This document shows positions 683 through 49,977 of a stretch of DNA of 64,000 bases, piece after piece; the stretch's first letter is position 1; every line of letters begins with the position of its first letter. Source of the stretch: Methylococcaceae bacterium UBA2780 (lineage in GTDB: Bacteria > Pseudomonadota > Gammaproteobacteria > Methylococcales > UBA2780); contig DEIG01000001.1 of the NCBI GenBank assembly GCA_002352345.1, positions 13,028 to 77,027 on the forward strand, given 5' to 3'. A program made the translations under genes and the position numbers. A model generated the notes under the pieces. That model was not told where the DNA came from and searched no databases. It saw only the letters and a program-made list of their open reading frames with translations.

Positions 683-1300
683 TTATTGCCACCAGCTCGT
701 TTCCAATTCATCCCGGCAACTCGCTAGCTGGCCGCGATATCGTTTTGACCGCCTGTCAACCTTCTTGGCTACCCTTACCAACCAAGGTTTTCGGTTATAA
801 GTTCTCCGCTTATAACCGCCATGCCCTTCATGATAGGCAAGGTATTGCTTACCGGCATCCCATTTTGAAATACCCAGCTTTTGACTACTGACCGACACAT
901 ACCAACCGATAAAGTCAGTTGCATCTTCAAAGTCATCACGGTCTGCGCCCCAATTACCCGTCGAATCAATATACCAATCCCAAGTGCTATCTAGTACCTG
1001 CGCATATCCGTATGCACTTGAGGGTCGACCTAGAGGAATAAACAGAAACCACTCAAAAGAGGGCTTTGCATCAGAATAGAACCTAGATTCTTGATGAATA
1101 ATCGCCATCTGCACATGAACCGGTACCCCCCATTTTTTGAACGCATCATTGGCGTCGTCGTACCAATCACTCTGATCACGGAATATCTCACAGATATTAT
1201 CCAACCGGGCTGACGGCATTGTCGCGCAACCACTCAAGAAAATCATGAAGGTGAACATGAAAACAAGCCTTGTTGAGATCACGTTTATTGGCCCTCCCAA
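683..1300 (-). CDS. Lipoprotein with an SLT-like (lytic transglycosylase-like) domain
   Basis: N-terminus ...TRLVFMFTFMIFLSGC is a signal peptide plus lipobox. IIHQESRF and SAYGYAQV resemble the catalytic E-S and AYGxxQ motifs of SLT-type transglycosylases. The start is uncertain: the track start is TTG, and a GTG at 1282 gives MISTRLVF... Confidence 0.6.
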   Translation of the reverse strand: MGGPINVISTRLVFMFTFMIFLSGCATMPSARLDNICEIFRDQSDWYDDANDAFKKWGVPVHVQMAIIHQESRFYSDAKPSFEWFLFIPLGRPSSAYGYAQVLDSTWDWYIDSTGNWGADRDDFEDATDFIGWYVSVSSQKLGISKWDAGKQYLAYHEGHGGYKRRTYNRKPWLVRVAKKVDRRSKRYRGQLASCRDELETSWWQ

Positions 1301-1957: not shown

Positions 1958-2872
1958 GTGAATAACAACATCAAAAATTGGTTTTTGCTGGCCAGGATTC
2001 CCTTTTTCTCTCCCGCACTCCTTCCTTTTCTACTTGGCTCAATGCTTGCCGCGCAAACGACCAGCCCTTTTAATTGGCCTGTTTTAATTATTAGCCTATG
2101 CGCGGTCATCTCTATTCTGCTCGCCTGTCATTTGACTGGAGAGCTTGCCGATTTAGAGGTTGATCGGCTTTCAGCAACATTGGAACGAAACCGTTTTTCT
2201 GGTGGCAGTCAGATTCTGGTAAAAGAGCTACTTTCTCCTCATCAAGTCCAACGTGTCGCCTATCTCGCGATTGTAATCGCCGTCATACTCGGCCTAACGC
2301 TTCAATTTGCCTTTGATCGCGGCCCTCTCACCATTCCTTTAGGAGTTATCGCAATTTTCTGCGCCTGGTTTTACTCAAAACCACCGCTACGCCTTGTTGA
2401 AAGAGGGCTTGGTGAAATCATGATTGCTTTTTGTTACGGCTGGCTATCCATTACGGTCGCTTACTATCTACAGACTGGTGAATTTTCTGCTCAGGCAAAT
2501 TTGATGGCCATACCCATTGGGCTAAGCTGCTTTAATATTATTCTTATTAATGAATTTCCTGACTATCCAGCCGACCTGCAAACAGGCAAAAGAAATCTTG
2601 TTGTCCGCTTTGGAAAAGCTTTTGCCAGAAAACTTTATCTATTAGCGAATATCATCTCTTGGATAATCTTTTATCAGTTACATTCAGAAGGGCATCTGCC
2701 ACAGTTCGCTACTCTCTTCTATCTGCCCTTCTTTATTATGTCGTTAAAAGCCTCTTACCTCCTAAACTCCAGCCAAGACAAAGATCCAGAAAAGCTCGAA
2801 CAAACTTGTGGTTCCACCATTATTGTTAACCTCGGCACAACACTCACACTGATGTTAAGCCTTATAAATTAA
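1958..2872 (+). CDS. UbiA-family (MenA-like) membrane prenyltransferase
   Basis: 304 aa and highly hydrophobic, with multiple TM segments. It has Asp-rich motifs GELADLEVDR and NEFPDYPAD, as in the UbiA superfamily. GTG start. Confidence 0.75.
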   Translation: MNNNIKNWFLLARIPFFSPALLPFLLGSMLAAQTTSPFNWPVLIISLCAVISILLACHLTGELADLEVDRLSATLERNRFSGGSQILVKELLSPHQVQRVAYLAIVIAVILGLTLQFAFDRGPLTIPLGVIAIFCAWFYSKPPLRLVERGLGEIMIAFCYGWLSITVAYYLQTGEFSAQANLMAIPIGLSCFNIILINEFPDYPADLQTGKRNLVVRFGKAFARKLYLLANIISWIIFYQLHSEGHLPQFATLFYLPFFIMSLKASYLLNSSQDKDPEKLEQTCGSTIIVNLGTTLTLMLSLIN

Positions 2873-3262: not shown

Positions 3263-5041
3263 ATGACAAACCAACTCAAAATAACCGACGTTGTTCTGCG
3301 TGATGCACATCAGTCACTTTTTGCGACTCGGCTACGCATCGAAGATATGCTTCCTATTGCCGAGAAACTCGACAAAATTGGCTACTGGTCTCTAGAAACA
3401 TGGGGTGGAGCCACTTTTGACTCCTGCATCCGCTACTTGGGTGAAGACCCATGGGAACGCCTACGCCTACTCAAAGAGGCAATGCCAAACACACCACAAC
3501 AGATGCTATTACGCGGTCAAAACCTGTTGGGTTATCGCCATTACGCTGATGATGTTGTTGAAACTTTTGTCGAGCGTGCTGCTGAAACTGGAATGGATGT
3601 TTTTCGCGTTTTTGATGCGATGAACGATGTCCGCAATCTTGATACTGCGGTTAAAGCGGTAATCAAATCAGGCAAACATGCCCAAGGAACCATCTCTTAC
3701 ACCGACAGCCCGGTTCATACACTCGACACATGGGTCGAGATGGGTAAAAAGCTGGAAGATTTAGGCTGCCACTCGATTGCAATTAAAGATATGGCAGGGC
3801 TTCTTCGCCCCCATGATGCGGCAGAGCTTGTCTCTCGCCTAAAAGAAAGTTGCTCTATCCCGCTTGCACTTCATTCACACGCCACAACAGGAATGAGCGT
3901 TGCCACTTGCCATAAAGCCGTTGAAGCCGGCCTGGATATGCTCGATACAGCCATCTCATCAATGAGCATGACTTACGGACACTCTCCAACTGAATCCTTT
4001 GTTGCCATGCTGCAGGGAACCGATAGAGATACCGGCTTAGACCTAAACCAGCTCGAAGAGATTGCCGCCTACTTTAGAGAGGTTCGCAAAAAATATGCGC
4101 CATTTGAAGGGGCACTGAAAGGTGTGGACTCCAGAATCCTAGTTGCACAAGTTCCTGGAGGCATGTTGACCAATCTTGAGAGCCAACTCCGCGAGCAAAA
4201 TGCAGGCGACAAAATTGATGCTGTTCTAGAAGAGATTCCCAATGTCCGCAAAGATCTTGGCTATCTACCGCTGGTAACACCAACATCTCAAATTGTCGGA
4301 ACACAAGCTGTGATCAATGTTCTGACAGGCGAGCGCTACAAGACCATCACCAAAGAGACTGCTGGCGTTCTTAAAGGCGAATATGGTGCCGCACCAGCCC
4401 CCGTCAACAAGGAGCTACAAGCACGTGTTTTAGACGGCGCAGAGCCAATCACTTGCCGACCAGCCGATCTAATTGACCCAGAAATGGACAAACTTTCTGC
4501 AGCGCTTGAAGGGAAAGTGGAGAGCGACAATCTCGAGCTAGCTGAAAACAAAATTGATGATGTCTTAACCTACGCGCTATTTCCTCAGGTAGGCTTAGAT
4601 TTCATCAAAAACAGAAACAATCCCGAAGCCTTTGAACCCGTACCTACGCTCGAATCCGCTGAAGCTGCAGCGAAAAAAGAGAACACTCAATACGATGTGG
4701 TTGTGAACGGCTCGCTGTTTAACGTAGAAGTTGCGCCTGGCGGCACAATCGCTCAAGTGCTTCCCACATCTGCGTGTGCAGCACCAGCCACAAAAGTAGA
4801 AGAGACGCCTGCTGCACCCAGTGCAGATGCCAAACCACTACTATCTCCAATGGCTGGCAACATTGTCCGCATTTCTGTTGCTCCGGGCGATCAAGTTAAT
4901 GATGGCGATGTCGTTGTCATTCTTGAGGCGATGAAAATGGAAACAGAGATTCGTTGCAACCAATCTGGAACGGTTGCCCATATTTTTGCAAAAGAGGGGG
5001 AATCTGTTCCAGCAGCAGCTCCTCTTCTTCAAATCAGCTAA
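3263..5041 (+). CDS. oadA: Oxaloacetate decarboxylase alpha subunit (carboxyltransferase plus biotinyl domain)
   Basis: 592 aa. The N-terminus [13 protein letters not shown]...WGGATFD is the HMGL-like carboxyltransferase. The C-terminus has the biotin attachment motif EAMKME. Confidence 0.9.
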
Positions 5042-23157: not shown

Positions 23158-23336
23158 CCTCTGTCCAAAACCTGAAAGTTTCACAATCGCCACTCCCTCA
23201 GCGCCTGCTTACATCTTCGGTGGGCTAATCATAGCCGCTCTCCAGAGTCGATATGGCCTCTATGGTCCGTTTGCCTGAGCGATTCCGGGCGGATTTGCGT
23301 CTTCGGCGCCGGATGGATCCGGGCTCTCCCAACGAG
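23158..23336 (-). promoter_or_regulatory. Tandem glycine riboswitch (two aptamers) in the gcvT leader
   Basis: Aptamer 1 on the minus strand: GGGAGAGCCCGGAUCCAUCCGGCGCCGAAGACGCAA...CGCUCAGGCAAACGGACC. Aptamer 2: CUCUGGAGAGCGGCUAUGAUUAGCCCACCGAAGAUGUAAGC...CUUUCAGGUUUUGGACAGAGG. Both match the conserved GGAGAG / (C/G)ACCGAAG..CAA / CUCAGGCAAAAGGAC cores. Confidence 0.9.
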
Positions 23337-23496
23337 GTGTTATCGAGCTGCTCATTGTACAGATGAGCAGCCTTTTTTCCAAACCGTAGGATAATGACTA
23401 CAATGCTATCATCACCTAACCACAATACTTAAATAACCTTATCGTTTACAGTGCTTTATACAGATCATCCTTCCTGAGTAAAAATTAAAAAACAAG

Positions 23497-42693: not shown

Positions 42694-44685
42694 CTAAGTA
42701 TGTGGAGAGAAGACCTCTTCCAGCTTATCGTGCACCTGTTGATATTCCTTAGCAAAATCCATTTCATTTCGCACAGCATTTCCAGACAAGAGGACCTGAA
42801 CGCCACCATCCCTCTTTCTGAAATAGACCCACAATCGGCGCTGCGGCATATAAAACATTAGAAATACGCCCAATGCCAACATAAAACAGCCTGGGTAAAC
42901 CAAATTTTTGCCTGGCGACCTTGTTAACTGCAGCCCTGTGGCTTGAATATGCTCAAAGCTTTCCAGCTGAAGATAGAAGGGTGAGCCATACCGCTCAATC
43001 GCACCAATCGCCGCACCTGCATCCTCAAAAAACTGCGAATCAAATGCACTCATCTCTTGGTCTATTGACTGCCCCTCATCCTTTAGTAGATTAATATAAA
43101 CCACTCCCAAGAGGTGGCGAAGAATTTTCACGTAGATTCCAGCAACCTCCTCTCGTTTTTCCTCAGGAATACGAGACTCTATCGCACCCACTACAGCATC
43201 CATTCCGCCCTGAACATAAATGCCCACAAGCATGCTCATCATTTTTGCAATCTCTTCTTGTCCGCCTTCGGGCACTACACCGCCACCATCTGTTGCTGAG
43301 GCAATCTTCAATGCCAGTTGGTATAGCGTCTTGGTATCTTTCAGTCGATTATAAAATGCCATAAATCGATGAACAGAACCTGAAGAGTCAGCGGGCAGAT
43401 AAAGATACTGAAAAGGTTCTGCCGGACTGCTACGAACTCCACTCATAAAATAGGGGCGCCCATCCGTCTCGACTGGGCTCATATAGTTCAAATATTCCTT
43501 AGCCTCACCAATTTCTGATCTCAACTTAAACTGGATACTTGGCCCTATATTATGAAACTTTCGCCCCTCTTCGGGAGAGGGCTGGATATTAAAAAGTCGA
43601 AAATCATTCAGCTCCAAATTCATTACGCCTTGTGCTGACTGTAACTTCTGCTCCTGATTAATGACTCCTTTCAGCTGAATAGGTTCATTTTTCCCGCCAA
43701 CCAAAGGCCATGCTTTTACATCTATTTTAGAACCACCATCACCAAAGCTCGCCTGATAAATCGACACCCCTTTATAAATAAGCGGGTGATTAACTGAAAT
43801 GGTCTCTCTAATTGGCTCTTTTAACGTCTCATCCACAATAACCAAATCACTTTCAAATGATTTCGGCTGCCCACTTGCGTAGTGTTCAATTCGAAAATCT
43901 TCAACCTCTATTGTGAAAGGTAGTTGCTGGAGCAAATAACCGTCCTTATAACCAAGAAAGACAACATTTGCACCGCCTCCCTCAGGAATACTCACATTCC
44001 CTCTATACGAAAGATTGCTACTATCTAGGCGGCTAATCTCTGGTATCTCATTTGCCGAAATATTACGCTTTTCTACCTTGATCTCACCAAGAGACTCAGC
44101 AATTTTCAATAAGACATTGCCATCCATCAACCCGCCAATGCAGATCAAAACAATCGCAATATGCGTTAGCAGATAACCCCATCGACTTCCTGCCCCTTTA
44201 ATTGCTGATAAAAGCTGATAATCATCACCGCTCTTTTCTCTCAATCGAAAACCATGGTGCGCCAAAAGCTCATTCGATACCGACATGCACTCTTCAATTG
44301 GTGCAGCCACCTTCCATTCATTATTGTGCTTATGATTGCGAAGAGATCTCTCTTGAGCCTCAAGCCGAAAATCTTGCATTTCACGAAACATTCTCGGCAT
44401 ATTTCGATAGATACAGACACTCGTCGACAAGACAAGAAAACCGAGAATAATTAGAAACCAAACTGCAGAATAGACTTGGAACAGGCCTAATGTTTTAAAT
44501 ACCTCAAACCAAAATGGACCAAATTTCAAAAGATAGTCCGAATATGGCTGGTTTTGCTGAAGAACCGTACCAATAATTGAGGCAACAGAAACAGCAACCA
44601 GCAGAGTGATTGCCAGATTCATTGAACCCAGAAACTTCAGTAAAATTGCTCGCCTACTGGCGTGATGGGTATTGCTATTAGTCAT
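42694..44685 (-). CDS. ccsB: Cytochrome c biogenesis protein ResB/CcsB (system II)
   Basis: 663 aa. N-terminus LKFLGSMNLAITLLVAVSVASIIGTVLQQN is typical of ResB. It sits adjacent to ccsA. Confidence 0.9.
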   Translation of the reverse strand: MTNSNTHHASRRAILLKFLGSMNLAITLLVAVSVASIIGTVLQQNQPYSDYLLKFGPFWFEVFKTLGLFQVYSAVWFLIILGFLVLSTSVCIYRNMPRMFREMQDFRLEAQERSLRNHKHNNEWKVAAPIEECMSVSNELLAHHGFRLREKSGDDYQLLSAIKGAGSRWGYLLTHIAIVLICIGGLMDGNVLLKIAESLGEIKVEKRNISANEIPEISRLDSSNLSYRGNVSIPEGGGANVVFLGYKDGYLLQQLPFTIEVEDFRIEHYASGQPKSFESDLVIVDETLKEPIRETISVNHPLIYKGVSIYQASFGDGGSKIDVKAWPLVGGKNEPIQLKGVINQEQKLQSAQGVMNLELNDFRLFNIQPSPEEGRKFHNIGPSIQFKLRSEIGEAKEYLNYMSPVETDGRPYFMSGVRSSPAEPFQYLYLPADSSGSVHRFMAFYNRLKDTKTLYQLALKIASATDGGGVVPEGGQEEIAKMMSMLVGIYVQGGMDAVVGAIESRIPEEKREEVAGIYVKILRHLLGVVYINLLKDEGQSIDQEMSAFDSQFFEDAGAAIGAIERYGSPFYLQLESFEHIQATGLQLTRSPGKNLVYPGCFMLALGVFLMFYMPQRRLWVYFRKRDGGVQVLLSGNAVRNEMDFAKEYQQVHDKLEEVFSPHT

Positions 44686-44691
44686 AACACC

Positions 44692-44727
44692 CGAAAGATA
44701 AAGGGGGAGCGAAGATCGCTACCCCTT
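44692..44727 (-). terminator. Rho-independent terminator after the cytochrome c4 gene
   Basis: Minus strand reads GGGGTAGCGA-TCT-TCGCTCCCCC (one mismatch) followed by TTTATCTTTC. Confidence 0.6.
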
Positions 44728-44791
44728 CAAAAATTGAAATAGTTAAGTCGTTAGTCGCGGCTACTTGTAAAACAACTAACGTTAATCCAGC

Positions 44792-45394
44792 TTAATGCAG
44801 GCCTGAAATATAAGAAGAAACAGCCTTAATTTCCTTTAGCGTCATTTTGCCCGCTGTATTTCTCATCATCTCTGAAACATCATTTGTACGAATCTCAGAT
44901 TTGAAATCATTAAGCGCTTTTTCAAGATAGGTCACATGTTGCCCACTTAAAGAGGGGAAACCAGCTGGTTCGTTGCCTGTTCCTGTCGGGCCATGACATG
45001 ATTGGCAAGCAGCCAATCCACTATCAGGGTTACCACCGCGGTAGAGCTTCTCACCCAAAGTGATTTTCTCAACGTCCGCAACCTCTATAGTTGTCTTTTG
45101 GCTCGCAAAGTAAGCTGAGATATCTGCGATATCTTCATCACTCAATGCCCCAACCATTGCATTCATTGTTGGATCAATACGTGTTTGCGACTTAAAGTCT
45201 TTGAGCTGTTTTTCGATATATGAAGCATGCTGCCCTGCAAGTTTTGGAAACATCGGAGCAGGGCTATTCCCATCCATACCATGACATGCCGCACAGGCAT
45301 TCGCCTTTGCTTTTCCCGCAACTACATCTGCAGCTTGCACAGCTCCAATTCCAAATGCCAAAAGCAATCCAGCAAGTAGTACCTGTTTTTTCAT
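44792..45394 (-). CDS. Dihaem cytochrome c4
   Basis: Signal peptide MKKQVLLAGLLLAFGIGAVQA and two CxxCH motifs (CAACH, CQSCH). I prefer the ATG at 45394 because the track 5' extension runs through a terminator hairpin. Confidence 0.9.
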   Translation of the reverse strand: MKKQVLLAGLLLAFGIGAVQAADVVAGKAKANACAACHGMDGNSPAPMFPKLAGQHASYIEKQLKDFKSQTRIDPTMNAMVGALSDEDIADISAYFASQKTTIEVADVEKITLGEKLYRGGNPDSGLAACQSCHGPTGTGNEPAGFPSLSGQHVTYLEKALNDFKSEIRTNDVSEMMRNTAGKMTLKEIKAVSSYISGLH

Positions 45395-45409
45395 CGCCAA
45401 CTCTCTTTT

Positions 45410-45447
45410 AATAACAAAGCACAAGGCCTCCAGAGGAGGCCTTGTGC
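45410..45447 (-). terminator. Rho-independent terminator after the monohaem cytochrome c gene
   Basis: Perfect 13-bp stem GCACAAGGCCTCC-loop-GGAGGCCTTGTGC, followed on the minus strand by TTTGTTATT. Confidence 0.8.
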
Positions 45448-45466
45448 TTAAAACAACACCCTAAAC

Positions 45467-45778
45467 TTACTTCAAGCTTGAATAATAAGAAGCTAGATTT
45501 TCAATATCCGCGTCAGACAAAGCAGCCGCTGTAGGATTCATCATTGGGTTTTTACGTGTGCCCGCTTTGAATGCATTAAGCTGAGCAACTAAATATTTCT
45601 CGTTCTGGCCTGCCAAATTAGGATACCCAGGAATAGAGCTAACACCTGCTGCGCCATGACATGCTGCGCACATTCCTGATTTAGCTTTCCCTGCAGCTGC
45701 ATCTGCATGCGCCGCACTTGCGATACCTGTTACACCTGATAGTAGGCTTACTGCTACAACTGCCAATACTTTTTTCAT
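45467..45778 (-). CDS. Monohaem class I cytochrome c (c5/c551-552-like)
   Basis: Signal peptide, a single CAACH motif and a distal Met (NPMMNP); 103 aa. Confidence 0.85.
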
Positions 45779-45915
45779 TTTTATCTCCAGTTTTCTGTCT
45801 AGCTTTTAGAAACTACACTTGCCAGCCTGAATCACGACTGAACGTTTACCTGCCCAAATAGGAACATTAAACACGCATTATAGTCACTCATTTCATGATT
45901 AACTACTATATACGC

Positions 45916-46257
45916 CTATTTTTTCAAGCTGGCGTAATAGGCAGCGAGTTCTATAATATCTTTGTCCGTCAGTGAAGTAGCGGCTGGTGTCATCATCAAA
46001 TTATTTCTATAGCCGATTCTGAATGCTTTTAACTGCTCAACCAAGTAACTCTCACTCTTCCCTGCAATATCTGGCAAACCATCTTGGTTTCCTGAGCTCT
46101 CAGCACCATGACAGCCAGCGCATTTCGATTTTGCCAACATTTTACCCGCTATAATTTCTCCCGGCCCCGTCTTAACCGCTGCTGCCGGCTCGGCATTCAC
46201 GCCTCCCGCCAAGCAACCCATTCCAAGTAGCGCCGAAATAGTCAGTATTTTTTTCAT
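45916..46257 (-). CDS. Monohaem class I cytochrome c
   Basis: Signal peptide MKKILTISALLGMGCLAGGVNA, a CAGCH motif, and NLMMTP. The ATG at 46257 is preceded by GGGAGA. Confidence 0.85.
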   Translation of the reverse strand: MKKILTISALLGMGCLAGGVNAEPAAAVKTGPGEIIAGKMLAKSKCAGCHGAESSGNQDGLPDIAGKSESYLVEQLKAFRIGYRNNLMMTPAATSLTDKDIIELAAYYASLKK

Positions 46258-46412
46258 TCTTTCTCCCTGCCTCACCTTATTTTAATTACGCTGGAAGTTG
46301 TCTAACCATGAGCTAGGCGCTTACAGCAATAACCCACCCCTTCCAACGTTGCTCGTTGTATTATAGCGCTTCTTTAGCGCATGATTAACACGATTCCACC
46401 GAAACTATTTTT

Positions 46413-47012
46413 ATGAACAACTTTTACCGCAAAGCCCAATTTTTACTGAGCACTCCAGATCTCAAAAGTGCCCCTCTTGATCAAGGGCTCGAGGTCGCCT
46501 TTGCGGGGCGCTCAAATGCCGGGAAGTCCAGCGCTATCAATGCAATAACCTCTCACAAAGCACTCGCCAGAACAAGTAAAACGCCCGGCCGCACACAACA
46601 ACTAGTCTTTTTTAGACTTGATGATGAGCGGCGACTTGTCGATCTGCCAGGCTACGGGTACGCAAAAGTATCTCTGCAAATGCAGAAAGATTGGCAGCTT
46701 AATATGCAACGGTATTTAAACGAGCGCACAGCACTTAAAGGGCTTTTCTTGCTAATGGACATCCGCCGCCCGCTTACGCCATTTGATGAACAGATGATCT
46801 CTTGGTCGCAGCACCAACAGGTCCCCTTGCATATTGCACTGACCAAAGCAGACAAATTGAGCAAGGGAAATGCAAAAAGCATCTTGCTTAAAACACGTGA
46901 TGAACTCGAAGAACGGGGCATCCCCTGCTCCCTTCAACTTTTTTCTGTTCCCGGAAAAATAGGCGTTGACGATGCGCATGAAATTCTTAACGAGTGGTTC
47001 GAATTGAGCTGA
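46413..47012 (+). CDS. engB: Ribosome biogenesis GTP-binding protein EngB/YihA
   Basis: EVAFAGRSNAGKSSAINAIT (G1), DLPGYGYA (G3) and TKADK (G4). Confidence 0.95.
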   Translation: MNNFYRKAQFLLSTPDLKSAPLDQGLEVAFAGRSNAGKSSAINAITSHKALARTSKTPGRTQQLVFFRLDDERRLVDLPGYGYAKVSLQMQKDWQLNMQRYLNERTALKGLFLLMDIRRPLTPFDEQMISWSQHQQVPLHIALTKADKLSKGNAKSILLKTRDELEERGIPCSLQLFSVPGKIGVDDAHEILNEWFELS

Positions 47013-47044
47013 ATTGGCGTTGCTCAGCAATATTTATAGCATGG

Positions 47045-47176
47045 AGAAATAAAGAAACCCCAGAGCGACAATTAGGGGGCATCGCTCTGGGGCAAGATGT
47101 CCCGGCTGGAGAAGCCGGGAGGGAGAACATAACCTATGTTAGGAGGAACATAAGTAAACGCTGTTTCCAGCGCGTT
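47045..47176 (-). ncRNA. Candidate small regulatory RNA, or structured polA 3' UTR, in the polA-engB spacer
   Basis: Elements read on the minus strand:
- GGAACTT (47210-47204), then 16 nt, then CCTTA (47187-47183).
- Hairpin ACUUAUGUU-CCUCCU-AACAUAGGU (47155-47132).
- Linker CUCCCU.
- Hairpin CCCGGCU-UCUCC-AGCCGGG (47119-47101).
- Terminator CCCCAGAGCGA-loop-UCGCUCUGGGG (47092-47058) followed by UUUCUUUAUUU.
The boundaries are approximate. Confidence 0.45.
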
Positions 47177-47244
47177 GCAACATAAGGCAATTAGAATATT
47201 AAAAAGTTCCGTTCTCCCTAAAAATATTTTTCATCCCCCTATAG

Positions 47245-49977
47245 TTAGTGCGCCTCATCCCAGTTATCTCCTGTCCCAACATCGACAATTAAAGGCACAT
47301 CCAGCTCTACCGCCTCACTCATTAGCCCATCAATTTTCTGACCCGCTTGCTCGAGGTAATCTTCTCCAACTTCAAACACCAACTCATCATGAACCTGCAT
47401 AATCATCCGCACAGGGGCATCACTCCCCTCAATCCACTCGTCAACATTGATCATTGCCTTCTTAATAATATCTGCGGCCGTTCCCTGCATCGGCGCATTA
47501 ATTGCCGTCCTCTCCGCATATTGCCGCCGCTGCCCATTTCGCGCATTGATATCGGGCAGGTAGAGTCGCCGACCAAACAGCGTTTCAACATAACCTTTCT
47601 CTTTTGCAAGTTCCCGTGTGCTATCCATATATGTCTGAACACCTGGATAACGATTGAAATAGCGATCCACATAGGCCTGCGCCTCTCCTCTGGCAATACC
47701 CAGCTGGCGCGCCAAACCGAAAGCAGACATACCATAAATAAGGCCAAAATTAATTGCCTTAGCTGAGCGCCTCTGCTCTTGCGTCACCTCATCCAGCGCC
47801 ACCCCAAAAACCTCAGCTGCTGTTGATTTATGCACATCTTCACCGCGCACAAAGGCACCCAGCAACCCTTCATCTGCCGACAGGTGCGCCATAATCCGCA
47901 ATTCAATCTGAGAATAATCCGCTGCCAACATCTTATAGCCTTGCGGAACAATAAAGGCCTGCCGAATACGCCGGCCCTCAGCCGTTCTAACCGGAATATT
48001 CTGTAAATTTGGATTCGACGAAGATAGGCGTCCTGTTGCTGTCACCGCCTGATGGTAGGAGGTATGAACGCGACCAGTTTTTTCACTAACCTGCTCAGGC
48101 AGCCTGTCGGTATAGGTTGATTTGAGCTTACTAATACTGCGATTTTCAAGAATCAATCTCGGCAACGCGTAGGTTTCTGCCAATTCTTGCAAAACGGCTT
48201 CATTCGTTGATGGCTGTCCTTTTGGCGTCTTTTTAAGGACCGGCAACCCTTGCTGATCAAATAAAATAGCCTGAATCTGCTTAGGAGATGCCAGATTAAA
48301 TGGCTGTCCTGCCTCATCGTATGCGGATTGCTCGATCTCGAGCATGCGAGTCGCCAACTCATGGCTCTGTTTTGACAACAATGCAGAATCGATTAGCACA
48401 CCATTACGCTCTATACGCGAAAGCACTGGAACCAACGGCATCTCGATCTCTCGATAAAGCTGCGCCATCTCTGATTCAGCCTCTAATTTAGGCCATAGGC
48501 AGTGATGGAGACGCAAAGTAATATCGGCATCTTCAGCCGCATAAGGGGCTGCTTGCTCGAGTGAAATCTCCTGAAACGGGAGCTGCTTGGCACCTTTACC
48601 CGCAATCTCTTCGTAATGGGTTGTTTCGTAAGCGAGCAGTCTTAACGCCATATCGTCCATATTGTGGCGGCCTGCAACACTATTTAAAACATACGACTCC
48701 AACATCGTATCGTGCTCAATACCTCGCAGAGTTATTCCGTGATTTGCCAGCACATTAGAATCATATTTAAGATTTTGTCCGACTTTGGAGATGTTTGCAT
48801 CTTCAAGCAGTGGCCGCAATTTCTCCAAAACCCAATCGCACGAAAGCTGCGTGGGTGCTCCAGGATAGCTATGTGCGACCGGCACATAAGCTGCGGCACC
48901 CTCTTCTACAGCAAAAGAAACACCCACTACCTCTGCTGCAATATAGTCGAGTGAGGTTGTCTCCGTATCAAAGGCAAAAATTTCAGCTTTATTAAGCCTG
49001 TCCAGCCATATTTCAAACTGCTCTTCCGTTAAAACAAGTTCATAAGAAGCCTCAATTTCCTTAGCCACCACCATTTTCTCTGCTGGCTCCGCCTTAACAG
49101 AAGTCGGCCCTGAGCTTTCCTTTTCAAGCTGTTTTAACCAGCTTGAAAACTCAAACCGCTCGAGCAATTCGCTCAACTTCACCTTATCCATTGGATTGAG
49201 CGTTAAGTCACTTATATTTTCTGATAACGGTAGATCACATTTGATTGTTGCTAGCTCTCTAGAGAGCTTCAAAACCTCCAGCCCATTTCTAAGGTTATCG
49301 CCAACTTTTCCTTTCACCTCTTCTGCGCGCTCAATCAGCTCATCAACCGAGCCATACTCACCCAACCATTTTGCCGCCGTTTTCGGCCCCACTTTAGGCA
49401 CGCCGGGAATATTATCTGAACTATCTCCCACCAAGGCTAGATAATCGATTATCTGTTCAGGTGCCACACCAAACTTATCTTTAACTCCGTCAGGATCCAT
49501 CCGTGTATTGGTCATCGTGTTTTCTAGCATAATCTGCTCGTTGACCAACTGGGCCATGTCTTTATCCCCCGTCGAGACAATAACTTTCAACCCTTCCGAC
49601 GCAGCCTGGCGAGCGAGTGTTCCGATCACATCATCTGCCTCAACACCCGACTCCATCACCAACGGAAAGCCCATTGCTTTGATTAGCTCATGCAATGGGG
49701 AAATCTGCCGGCGCAAATCATCATCCATTGGTGGGCGATTTGCTTTGTACTGATCGTACATCTCATGACGAAAGGTTTTTCCTGGCGCATCGAAAACGAC
49801 AACAACTTCTGCCCCTGGATACTCCACCAATAATTTTCTCAACATATTTGAGACACCGAGGATTGCCCCGGTCGGCTCACCCTGAAAATTAGTCAGTGGT
49901 GGCAATGCATGAAAAGCTCTAAATAAAAAAGAGGAGCCATCAACGAGAACAATTGTTTTTTCAGGAGGTTGCGTCAT
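47245..49977 (-). CDS. polA: DNA polymerase I
   Basis: 910 aa with 5'-nuclease, 3'-5' exonuclease and Pol A motifs (DYSQIELR, QVHDELVFE). Confidence 0.98.
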   Translation of the reverse strand: MTQPPEKTIVLVDGSSFLFRAFHALPPLTNFQGEPTGAILGVSNMLRKLLVEYPGAEVVVVFDAPGKTFRHEMYDQYKANRPPMDDDLRRQISPLHELIKAMGFPLVMESGVEADDVIGTLARQAASEGLKVIVSTGDKDMAQLVNEQIMLENTMTNTRMDPDGVKDKFGVAPEQIIDYLALVGDSSDNIPGVPKVGPKTAAKWLGEYGSVDELIERAEEVKGKVGDNLRNGLEVLKLSRELATIKCDLPLSENISDLTLNPMDKVKLSELLERFEFSSWLKQLEKESSGPTSVKAEPAEKMVVAKEIEASYELVLTEEQFEIWLDRLNKAEIFAFDTETTSLDYIAAEVVGVSFAVEEGAAAYVPVAHSYPGAPTQLSCDWVLEKLRPLLEDANISKVGQNLKYDSNVLANHGITLRGIEHDTMLESYVLNSVAGRHNMDDMALRLLAYETTHYEEIAGKGAKQLPFQEISLEQAAPYAAEDADITLRLHHCLWPKLEAESEMAQLYREIEMPLVPVLSRIERNGVLIDSALLSKQSHELATRMLEIEQSAYDEAGQPFNLASPKQIQAILFDQQGLPVLKKTPKGQPSTNEAVLQELAETYALPRLILENRSISKLKSTYTDRLPEQVSEKTGRVHTSYHQAVTATGRLSSSNPNLQNIPVRTAEGRRIRQAFIVPQGYKMLAADYSQIELRIMAHLSADEGLLGAFVRGEDVHKSTAAEVFGVALDEVTQEQRRSAKAINFGLIYGMSAFGLARQLGIARGEAQAYVDRYFNRYPGVQTYMDSTRELAKEKGYVETLFGRRLYLPDINARNGQRRQYAERTAINAPMQGTAADIIKKAMINVDEWIEGSDAPVRMIMQVHDELVFEVGEDYLEQAGQKIDGLMSEAVELDVPLIVDVGTGDNWDEAH

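Follow-up and report, generated by a model that had tools for sequence, protein, structure and literature searches.

Several small RNAs (sRNAs) are known from the chromosomal slot beside engB (yihA). Spot 42 (spf) in Escherichia coli, which has a sigma-70 promoter repressed by cAMP-CRP and governs carbon metabolism, and ErsA in Pseudomonas aeruginosa both lie between polA and engB on the polA strand. Elsewhere in Enterobacteria, the short Hfq-type sRNAs MicA, RybB and MicL, the last of which overlaps the 3' end of a gene, are transcribed from promoters of the form GGAACTT-N16-TCNAA and repress envelope protein synthesis. The consensus of RpoE/AlgU-type promoters is established, with GAACTT as the sigmaE/AlgU -35 element; we know of no such promoter reported for sX13 (RF02232), an sRNA of the Xanthomonadaceae. 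ErsA, whose promoter has been described as RpoE/AlgU-type (PMC7565897), depends on sigma-22 and pairs with the ribosome binding sites of its targets through the region 3' of its first hairpin (PMC13613067, PMC5819304, PMC7565897), and it represses algC, oprD, mlaA and fleN at these sites (PMC13613067, PMC5819304). sX13 uses its C-rich loops to base-pair with G-rich stretches of mRNA close to where translation starts, with XCV3927, hfq and pilH as targets, and the authors of that study had raised the question of comparable RNAs at polA loci elsewhere (PMC3771888). The anti-hemB RNA (RF02837), known as ncS04 in Burkholderia cenocepacia, is a 105-nt primary transcript according to differential RNA sequencing, rapid amplification of cDNA ends and Northern blotting, and has been reported to bind Hfq (PMC5688073). 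In the present study, we analysed a 64,000-nt stretch of the assembly of Methylococcaceae bacterium UBA2780 (GCA_002352345.1, contig DEIG01000001.1, positions 13,028 to 77,027 of the forward strand), hereafter the window. The sequence comparisons indicate that the spacer between polA and engB in this window holds a real, evolutionarily conserved gene for a predicted regulatory RNA of about 130 nt, and that this RNA, so far without annotation, is related to ErsA and anti-hemB and does not represent a novel type of element.

In the window, engB ends at 47012 on the plus strand and polA ends at 47245 on the minus strand, and the two genes are therefore convergent and separated by a spacer of 232 bp. 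The features of the locus are as follows.

47047..47176, minus strand: predicted sRNA, about 125-130 nt, from folding and covariance models, both ends predicted
47204..47210, minus strand: -35 box GGAACTT, RpoE/AlgU-type, read from the sequence
47183..47187, minus strand: -10 box CCTTA, 16 nt past the -35 box, imperfect against the consensus TCNNA
47158..47173, minus strand: hairpin 1, GCGCUG-GAAA-CAGCGU, 6 bp with a GNRA-like loop, from the sequence and the fold
47132..47155, minus strand: hairpin 2, 9-bp stem ACUUAUGUU/AACAUAGGU with the loop CCUCCU (47141-47146), from the sequence and the fold
47120..47131, minus strand: single-stranded linker UAUGUUCUCCCU, including CUCCCU (47125-47120), unpaired in the minimum free energy (MFE) and centroid folds
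47101..47119, minus strand: hairpin 3, CCCGGCU-UCUCC-AGCCGGG, 7-8 bp, from the sequence and the fold
47047..47093, minus strand: intrinsic terminator, 11-12-bp GC-rich stem (11 bp read at 47092-47058) with the 13-nt loop UGCCCCCUAAUUG, from the sequence
47075-47079, minus strand: CCCCC run in the terminator loop, read from the sequence
47047-47057, minus strand: U-tract UUUCUUUAUUU, present on the minus strand only
47247-47245, minus strand: stop codon TAA of polA, read from the sequence
47245..49977, minus strand: polA (910 aa), upstream of the RNA and co-directional with it, from the open reading frame (ORF) listing and the Pfam domains of homologues
46413..47012, plus strand: engB/yihA (199 aa), converging on the RNA and the conserved neighbour of the RNA family

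The predicted 5' end was placed 6-8 nt past the -10 box, with hairpin 1 directly after it, and the predicted 3' end lies within the U-tract. Three C/U-rich loops are presented, namely CCUCCU, UCUCC and UGCCCCCUAAUUG; the first of these, which follows within a few nt of hairpin 1, is complementary to GGAGG Shine-Dalgarno sequences. The 130-nt RNA (47176-47047) folds into four hairpins with an MFE of -55.8 kcal/mol (z = -7.53; none of 200 shuffles was as stable), and the MFE structure is also the centroid structure, while the opposite strand folds less well (z = -3.84). A long-range pairing of AGGGAGAAC, upstream of the -35 box, with GUUCUCCCU appeared in the fold of the full spacer and was dropped, as it is not kept in the two closest relatives, L003 and L009 (L numbers denote the loci compared). 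A preliminary description of this spacer, made from its letters, had listed GGAACTT, CCTTA, two hairpins, CUCCCU and the terminator, and each was found on the minus strand at the positions given there; that list was incomplete, however, since it lacked the 5' GAAA-loop hairpin and the CCCCC run of the terminator loop.

The closest EngB proteins (91-81% identity) come from metagenome assemblies, one of them labelled 'Gammaproteobacteria bacterium', and metagenome-assembled genomes (MAGs) of Methylococcales give EngB matches at 65% identity or less. A convergent polA-engB pair with a homologous spacer between the genes was also observed in L003, L009, L010, L011/L012 and L014/L015, in which EngB is 91%, 88%, 81%, 72% and 65% identical to that of the window. 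In relatives with EngB identities of 91-61%, the promoter and the RNA are more conserved than the flanking coding DNA. In L003 and L009, for example, identity to the window amounts to 100% for a 28-nt promoter block and 93-94% (nucleotide) for the RNA, compared with 76-83% for the last 90 nt of polA and of engB and only 49-74% for the stretch of 34-55 nt between the polA stop and the -35 box. Conservation thus begins at GGAACTT.

The structure is supported by compensatory changes. In an alignment of seven sequences of the window clade, made with plain MAFFT and not fitted to structure, 91.5% of the cells of the four-helix model pair, and 15 pairs show double changes, compared with 6.1 ± 1.7 in shuffled alignments (none of 500 reached 15). 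The covariation score of this alignment is 0.40; shifting the 3' partners by 1-3 columns lowers it to 0.17 or less. In a wider set of 26 sequences, realigned to the model and hence by a fit that favours structure, 93.4% of the cells are paired and 33 of the 34 pairs are compensatory. Compensatory pairs were found in hairpin 1 (3 of 6 in the seven-sequence clade, 6 of 6 across 26 sequences), in hairpin 2 (9 of 9 across 26) and in the terminator, all cells of which pair within the clade (5 of 12 compensatory, rising to 11 of 12 across 26), and the hairpin 3 stem covaries in both alignments. The hairpin 2 stem has been wholly replaced in L011 (GGCUCAA/UUGAGCC) and in L014 (CUACUCAUU/AAUGAGUAG), and the loop is still CCUCCU or CCUCCC. 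This near-invariant CCUCC loop is common to the anti-hemB-type and window-clade members, with CCUCC(U/C) in 21 of the 26 sequences, UCUCCC in three, CUCCCC in one and the longer ACCUCCCCCC in one. The preliminary description had emphasized repeated CU-rich loops, which holds for hairpin 2, whose loop is the most conserved feature of the RNA, but not for hairpin 3, in which UCUCC alternates with UCCCC, CCCCUU, often a CCCC run and, in L011/L012, GUCUU(A). A run of at least four C residues occurs in the terminator loop of 18 of the 26 homologues, and the linker is C/U-rich among the close relatives and not alignable in the distant ones. Finally, G.U pairs outnumber A.C pairs by 61 to 10 in the larger alignment, which fixes the transcribed strand.

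The same relatives were informative for the promoter. GGAACTT is identical in L003, L009 and L010, and GAACTT is kept in L011, L012, L014, L096 and L098. At the same distance upstream of the RNA, the full motif reads GGAACTT-N16-TCTGA in L010, TGAACTT-N16-TCCAA in L011/L012, TGAACTT-N16-TCTTA in L014 and L098, and GGAACTT-N16-TCTTA in L096; as read from sequence, these predicted promoters are canonical for RpoE/AlgU-type extracytoplasmic function (ECF) sigma factors. The window, L003 and L009 share the -10 element CCTTA, which is one base off the consensus. Because of this local -10 element, the strict pattern GAACTT-N15-17-TCNNA has zero matches in the 64-kb window, where no other RpoE-type promoter was found either. 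Of the 32 homologous or analogous RNAs recognised in the engB-adjacent slot, Spot 42 apart, 29 have the relaxed pattern GAAC[TC][TCA]-N15-17-[TC]CNNA in the 75 nt upstream, where about 0.3 were expected from a background of 0.0104 per 75-nt stretch in all fetched DNA, and the remaining three carry near-variants such as GAAACTT. No sigma-70-like promoter was predicted on the minus strand of the spacer. These results agree with the preliminary description, in which the GGAACTT box had been taken as sigmaE/AlgU-type.

The promoter data also bear on the possibility that the RNA derives from the 3' untranslated region (UTR) of polA, being released by processing of read-through transcripts, with no working promoter of its own and GGAACTT as a relic. 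The polA stop and the -35 box are only 34 nt apart, a terminator scan of the spacer found no terminator between the polA stop and the sRNA promoter, and the -10 element of the window is off-consensus, as such an origin would allow. However, the promoter block is fully conserved in L003 and L009 while the 34-55 nt before it are not, and the same motif precedes homologues that have no co-directional gene upstream. In the betaproteobacterial locus L085, for example, the RNA is divergent from hemB, and no read-through product can therefore arise there. We thus regard an origin from the polA 3' UTR as unlikely. An own promoter and processing from polA could coexist, and the conservation of the promoter opposes processing as the sole route.

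The relationship of the RNA to described families was examined with covariance models. A search of species-representative genomes with EngB gave only two distant loci, neither with a comparable slot, and a metagenome scan seeded on EngB peptides only supplied 80 of the 95 engB loci surveyed (EngB 44-57% identical to that of the window). The model R1, built from the window clade and run over the 95 loci, scores the window RNA at 152.9 bits and, in about 30 of the 80 distant loci, has a match (E values of 1e-12 to 1e-4) that directly follows engB and lies on the strand convergent with it. According to Rfam, seven of the R1-matched loci are anti-hemB (RF02837); five loci are Pseudomon-1/ErsA (RF01719; L020, L021, L022 and L030 among the R1 matches, and L023), with the EngB of L021 and L022 being exact Pseudomonas sequences; and six further loci hold Spot_42. 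The remaining slot RNAs, including that of the window, match no Rfam family at the gathering score. A second model, R2, was built from 19 distant members, none of them from the window clade (11 unannotated and eight anti-hemB-type, i.e. seven that reach the Rfam gathering score plus L079). R2 finds the window RNA at 47047-47182 (minus strand) as its sole match in 64 kb (70.6 bits, E = 2.6e-17), although its seeds had been chosen by R1 and the reciprocal test is therefore not fully independent. The same model gives 54-65 bits for the window-clade relatives, 27-32 bits for ErsA loci (27-29 for Pseudomonas ErsA and 32 for the divergent ErsA-like L023) and 20-25 bits for Spot 42 loci, the last from the terminator and a generic 5' hairpin only.

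The Rfam models themselves do not reach the window RNA. At the gathering scores (Spot_42 80, ErsA 50, anti-hemB 49.5 and sX13 50 bits), nothing relevant was found in the polA-engB spacer in a scan of the whole window, and between 46850 and 47450 there was no Spot_42, ErsA, anti-hemB or sX13 match even at E <= 10. The models work where they should, with the six Spot_42 loci at 123-125 bits and the true ErsA loci at 133-144 bits. Under permissive Rfam thresholds, sub-threshold matches appeared in the same slot of relatives, with anti-hemB at 41.1 bits in L089, 36.7 bits (E = 3e-5) in L098, 35.5 bits in L024, 25.8 bits in L014 and 25.1 bits in L096, and ErsA at 29.5, 25.5 and 23.8 bits in L098, L014 and L096, respectively. 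From these scores, we read the RNAs as one diverged family, of which the window subclade would lie beyond the reach of the current Rfam models.

Element by element, the anti-hemB RNA is the closest described counterpart. It lies directly downstream of engB in convergent orientation, as the window RNA does; its elements come in the same order, from a CCUCCC-loop hairpin through another hairpin to a terminator whose loop is C-rich; a GGAACT-N16-TCTNA motif comparable to the window promoter lies upstream; and its loci score 22-32 bits with R1. The differences concern the other flank, which is a divergent hemB instead of the co-directional polA of the window, the stem sequences, the C/U-rich linker, which is longer in the window, and the hosts, Burkholderiales in one case and a gammaproteobacterium near Methylococcales in the other. 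ErsA (132 nt in RF01719) shares the polA-engB slot, the strand and a similar length, and its AlgU/sigma-22-type promoter has a counterpart in the perfect -35 box, 16-nt spacing and CCTTA -10 box of the window. In ErsA, too, the terminator loop is C-rich, and a small 5' hairpin is directly followed by a CUCCU with complementarity to ribosome binding sites. However, the CU-rich element of ErsA lies in a long unstructured U-rich region, whereas that of the window is held in the loop of a 9-bp hairpin, and Pseudomonas ErsA scores only 20-29 bits with R1 and R2. On these grounds, the window RNA is, by sequence comparison, a detectable homologue of anti-hemB and, more weakly, of Pseudomon-1/ErsA.

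The remaining described RNAs are more distant. Like the window RNA, sX13 is encoded downstream of polA and presents apical C-rich motifs on three stem-loops, but these are CCCC or CCCCC rather than CCUCC, its downstream neighbour is not engB, and the only trace of its model was a match of 23.6 bits (E = 1.4) in the relative L068. Spot 42 shares the slot, the strand, a similar size and a GCCCC...GGGGC-U terminator; beyond this terminator and a generic 5' hairpin there is no similarity, Spot 42 has no CCUCC loop, and the enterobacterial spf loci lack an RpoE-type motif. MicA, RybB and MicL follow a logic like that proposed here and are unrelated in sequence, structure and locus, with seeds at the 5' end that pair in or near coding regions and not through a loop directed against the Shine-Dalgarno sequence.

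The conserved linkage of the RNA is to engB and not to polA. polA is not near any of the anti-hemB-type loci; in L096, a Methylocaldum contig, a PolX/PHP polymerase gene and not polA lies upstream, with the RNA (2158-2290) and its promoter intact, and in L098 the RNA is 217 nt from polA. The engB-adjacent slot, in turn, is common to three Rfam families and many unannotated RNAs. Thus, the preliminary description was right in placing an RNA in the polA-engB spacer on the polA strand, where we find a discrete conserved gene with four covarying stems, and in seeing no similarity to Spot 42, but its synteny with polA and its term positional analogue need revision, since the link is to engB and the RNA is more than an occupant of the same slot. 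Two checks named there, an alignment of related spacers and a covariance-model scan, gave compensatory changes in all stems together with a retained C-run in the terminator loop, and recognition of the RNA by R2, described above, but by no Rfam model. Herein, we propose that anti-hemB/ncS04 of Burkholderiales, ErsA of Pseudomonas and many unannotated engB-side RNAs in Methylococcales-like and other Gammaproteobacteria descend from a single ancient sRNA gene, with the window RNA as the link between them. This ancestral gene would have been under RpoE/AlgU control, would have carried a CCUCC hairpin and would have stood beside engB already before Beta- and Gammaproteobacteria split. For and against this hypothesis, we find the evidence evenly balanced. 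A link between anti-hemB, ErsA and the unannotated engB-side RNAs was not found stated in the literature searched. If the hypothesis is true, the anti-hemB RNA would move from a proposed antisense regulator of heme synthesis into an envelope-stress regulon and gain a concrete, testable function, and Spot 42 would be a later occupant of the slot, either unrelated or with a swapped promoter.

The best overall explanation, which we hold with moderate confidence, is that the spacer encodes an independently transcribed, RpoE-type-driven, trans-acting sRNA on the polA strand that occludes ribosome binding sites. Under envelope stress, RNA polymerase with an ECF sigma factor of the RpoE/AlgU type would start transcription at GGAACTT-N16-CCTTA, as the conservation of the motif suggests, and transcription continuing out of polA, a gene without its own terminator, probably contributes a basal amount of the RNA. 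The transcript, as the covariation shows, forms the GAAA hairpin, the CCUCCU hairpin, the C/U-rich linker, the third hairpin and the CCCCC-loop terminator. By analogy with the described RNAs, the exposed CCUCCU loop, perhaps together with the other C-rich segments, may pair with Shine-Dalgarno regions of the GGAGG type, and this pairing would block translation initiation of a set of mRNAs, probably envelope-related, as ErsA and sX13 block theirs. As to ancestry, the reciprocal models show the window RNA to be a diverged member, in Gammaproteobacteria, of an engB-adjacent family to which anti-hemB/ncS04 of Burkholderiales and, more distantly, ErsA belong.

Several points weigh against this explanation, besides the fitting of the 26-sequence alignment and the choice of the R2 seeds mentioned above. 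First, the 5' end, the 3' end and the sigma dependence of the window RNA are all inferred from sequence; its -10 element has C for the consensus T at the first position; and a tblastn search with E. coli RpoE placed no rpoE in the 64-kb window, so that the presence of an RpoE-type sigma factor in this genome is assumed. Second, the U-tract UUUCUUUAUUU is interrupted and weaker than typical Hfq-binding tails. Third, ncS04 showed no significant change after 20 min in 0.01% sodium dodecyl sulfate or under other tested stresses (PMC5688073). Fourth, practically any strong Shine-Dalgarno sequence could pair with CCUCC, which leaves target specificity unaccounted for, and the duplex energies of hairpin 2 and the linker against 63 crude ORFs of the window (-30 to +15) did not improve on those of shuffled seeds, a comparison that is uninformative.

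A second alternative is that the RNA acts as a decoy or sponge, its C-rich loops titrating a G-rich RNA or an RNA-binding protein or competing globally for Shine-Dalgarno sites. The near-invariant CCUCC loop is the anti-Shine-Dalgarno core of 16S rRNA, conserved regardless of the flanking bases, three C-rich loops recur across the family, and no specific target stood out in the target prediction for the window. However, the relatives ErsA (PMC13613067) and sX13 (PMC3771888) act on defined mRNAs, and no candidate protein partner is known. We consider titration improbable, and the trans-acting sRNA remains our preferred explanation.

A cis-acting role was also weighed. The RNA is oriented towards engB, and its terminator in L014 extends into the 3' coding end of that gene; moreover, antisense control of hemB has been proposed for the anti-hemB RNA in a 2026 preprint (10.64898/2026.09.01.748597), and ResB and cytochrome c genes lie beside engB in the window too, so that an antisense regulator of the engB 3' end or of heme/cytochrome genes might be envisaged. 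It is very unlikely, in our judgement, since the window RNA stops 34 nt short of the engB stop codon, the overlap varies among relatives, there is no hemB at the window locus, and the conserved part is a loop and not an extended antisense stretch. Slightly less probable still is a passive element that serves polA as terminator and structured 3' UTR and regulates nothing, which is disfavoured even though a strong intrinsic terminator stands at the end and is needed by polA. A single hairpin suffices for termination, whereas the element has four with covarying stems, one of them with a near-invariant loop; it is retained at loci that lack polA and is more strongly conserved than the coding DNA around it; and this explanation would call for the absence of a stable short transcript from all carriers, which contradicts the data on ncS04 and ErsA. 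Lastly, an additional coding function, comparable to that of Spot 42 for the small protein SpfP, can be dismissed with hardly any reservation, because the 47-codon minus-strand ORF (ATG at 47130) runs through the terminator and lacks its ATG in L010, L011 and L014, and because this frame and that of the 63-aa plus-strand ORF, the small ORFs of the spacer, are broken by indels of 1 and 2 nt among close relatives, which leaves no conserved ORF and accords with the preliminary view that the spacer has no credible coding sequence.

The genome gains a well-supported candidate regulatory RNA gene that is undetected by any Rfam model, and the result suggests that current models miss most gammaproteobacterial members of the family. 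It would also provide a first entry point to the riboregulation of envelope stress in an uncultured lineage close to the methanotrophs; nothing on the polA-engB locus was found in the literature on methanotroph sRNAs and transcription starts.

The RNA is missing from some of the engB loci surveyed: in L004-L008 (EngB 88%), engB is followed on the same strand by metK, ahcY and metF in place of polA, and the 232-bp spacer before metK (about 3604-3835) holds no trace of it; in L013, where it is absent, engB is followed by another plus-strand gene; and in L097, also without the RNA, atpC follows engB across a 38-nt gap. Other loci carry additional units. Between polA and engB of L033 (about 2100-2780, minus strand), two tandem RpoE-type motifs each precede an RNA with a C-rich loop and a terminator, and from its sequence, this looks like the duplication of a slot RNA, which Rfam, R1 and R2 all fail to recognise. 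In L049 (2088-2550, minus strand) and L044 (2076-2790, minus strand), Spot 42 or a short Spot 42-like RNA lies beside polA and a second terminator-ended RNA-like unit lies closer to engB, which in L049 is preceded by TGAACTT-N16-TCTAT; this two-unit layout suggests that Spot 42 and the engB-side RNA may be separate genes in one slot. In the engB-polA gap of L037, L062 and L074 (minus strand), GGAACTT or TGAACTT-N16-TCTAA or TCTGA lies ahead of a short RNA that has CUCCC motifs and ends in a terminator. All three were missed by R1 and Rfam, and R2 gave weak scores for two (23.7 bits for L037 and 16.7 bits for L062); judged by sequence, these appear to be additional, diverged RNAs of this slot.

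On the other side of engB, the CsrC RNA (RF00084) was found in the enterobacterial loci L045, L047, L048 and L057 (about 700-1220, minus strand); the position of csrC beside engB is known and served as a positive control for the scans. In L014, which belongs to a Methylococcales MAG, the sRNA terminator overlaps the last codons of a C-terminally extended engB (2101-2124), so that two genes share 3' sequence on opposite strands. In the window, a ResB-like gene (663 aa) and three cytochrome c genes (42694-46275, minus strand) lie divergently upstream of engB, and this block beside engB is kept in all close relatives; ResB near the anti-hemB RNA has also been remarked upon in the 2026 preprint (10.64898/2026.09.01.748597). 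Finally, a glycine riboswitch aptamer (RF00504, 52.5 bits) at 23253-23341 on the minus strand is the sole Rfam family that reaches its gathering score in the 64-kb window.

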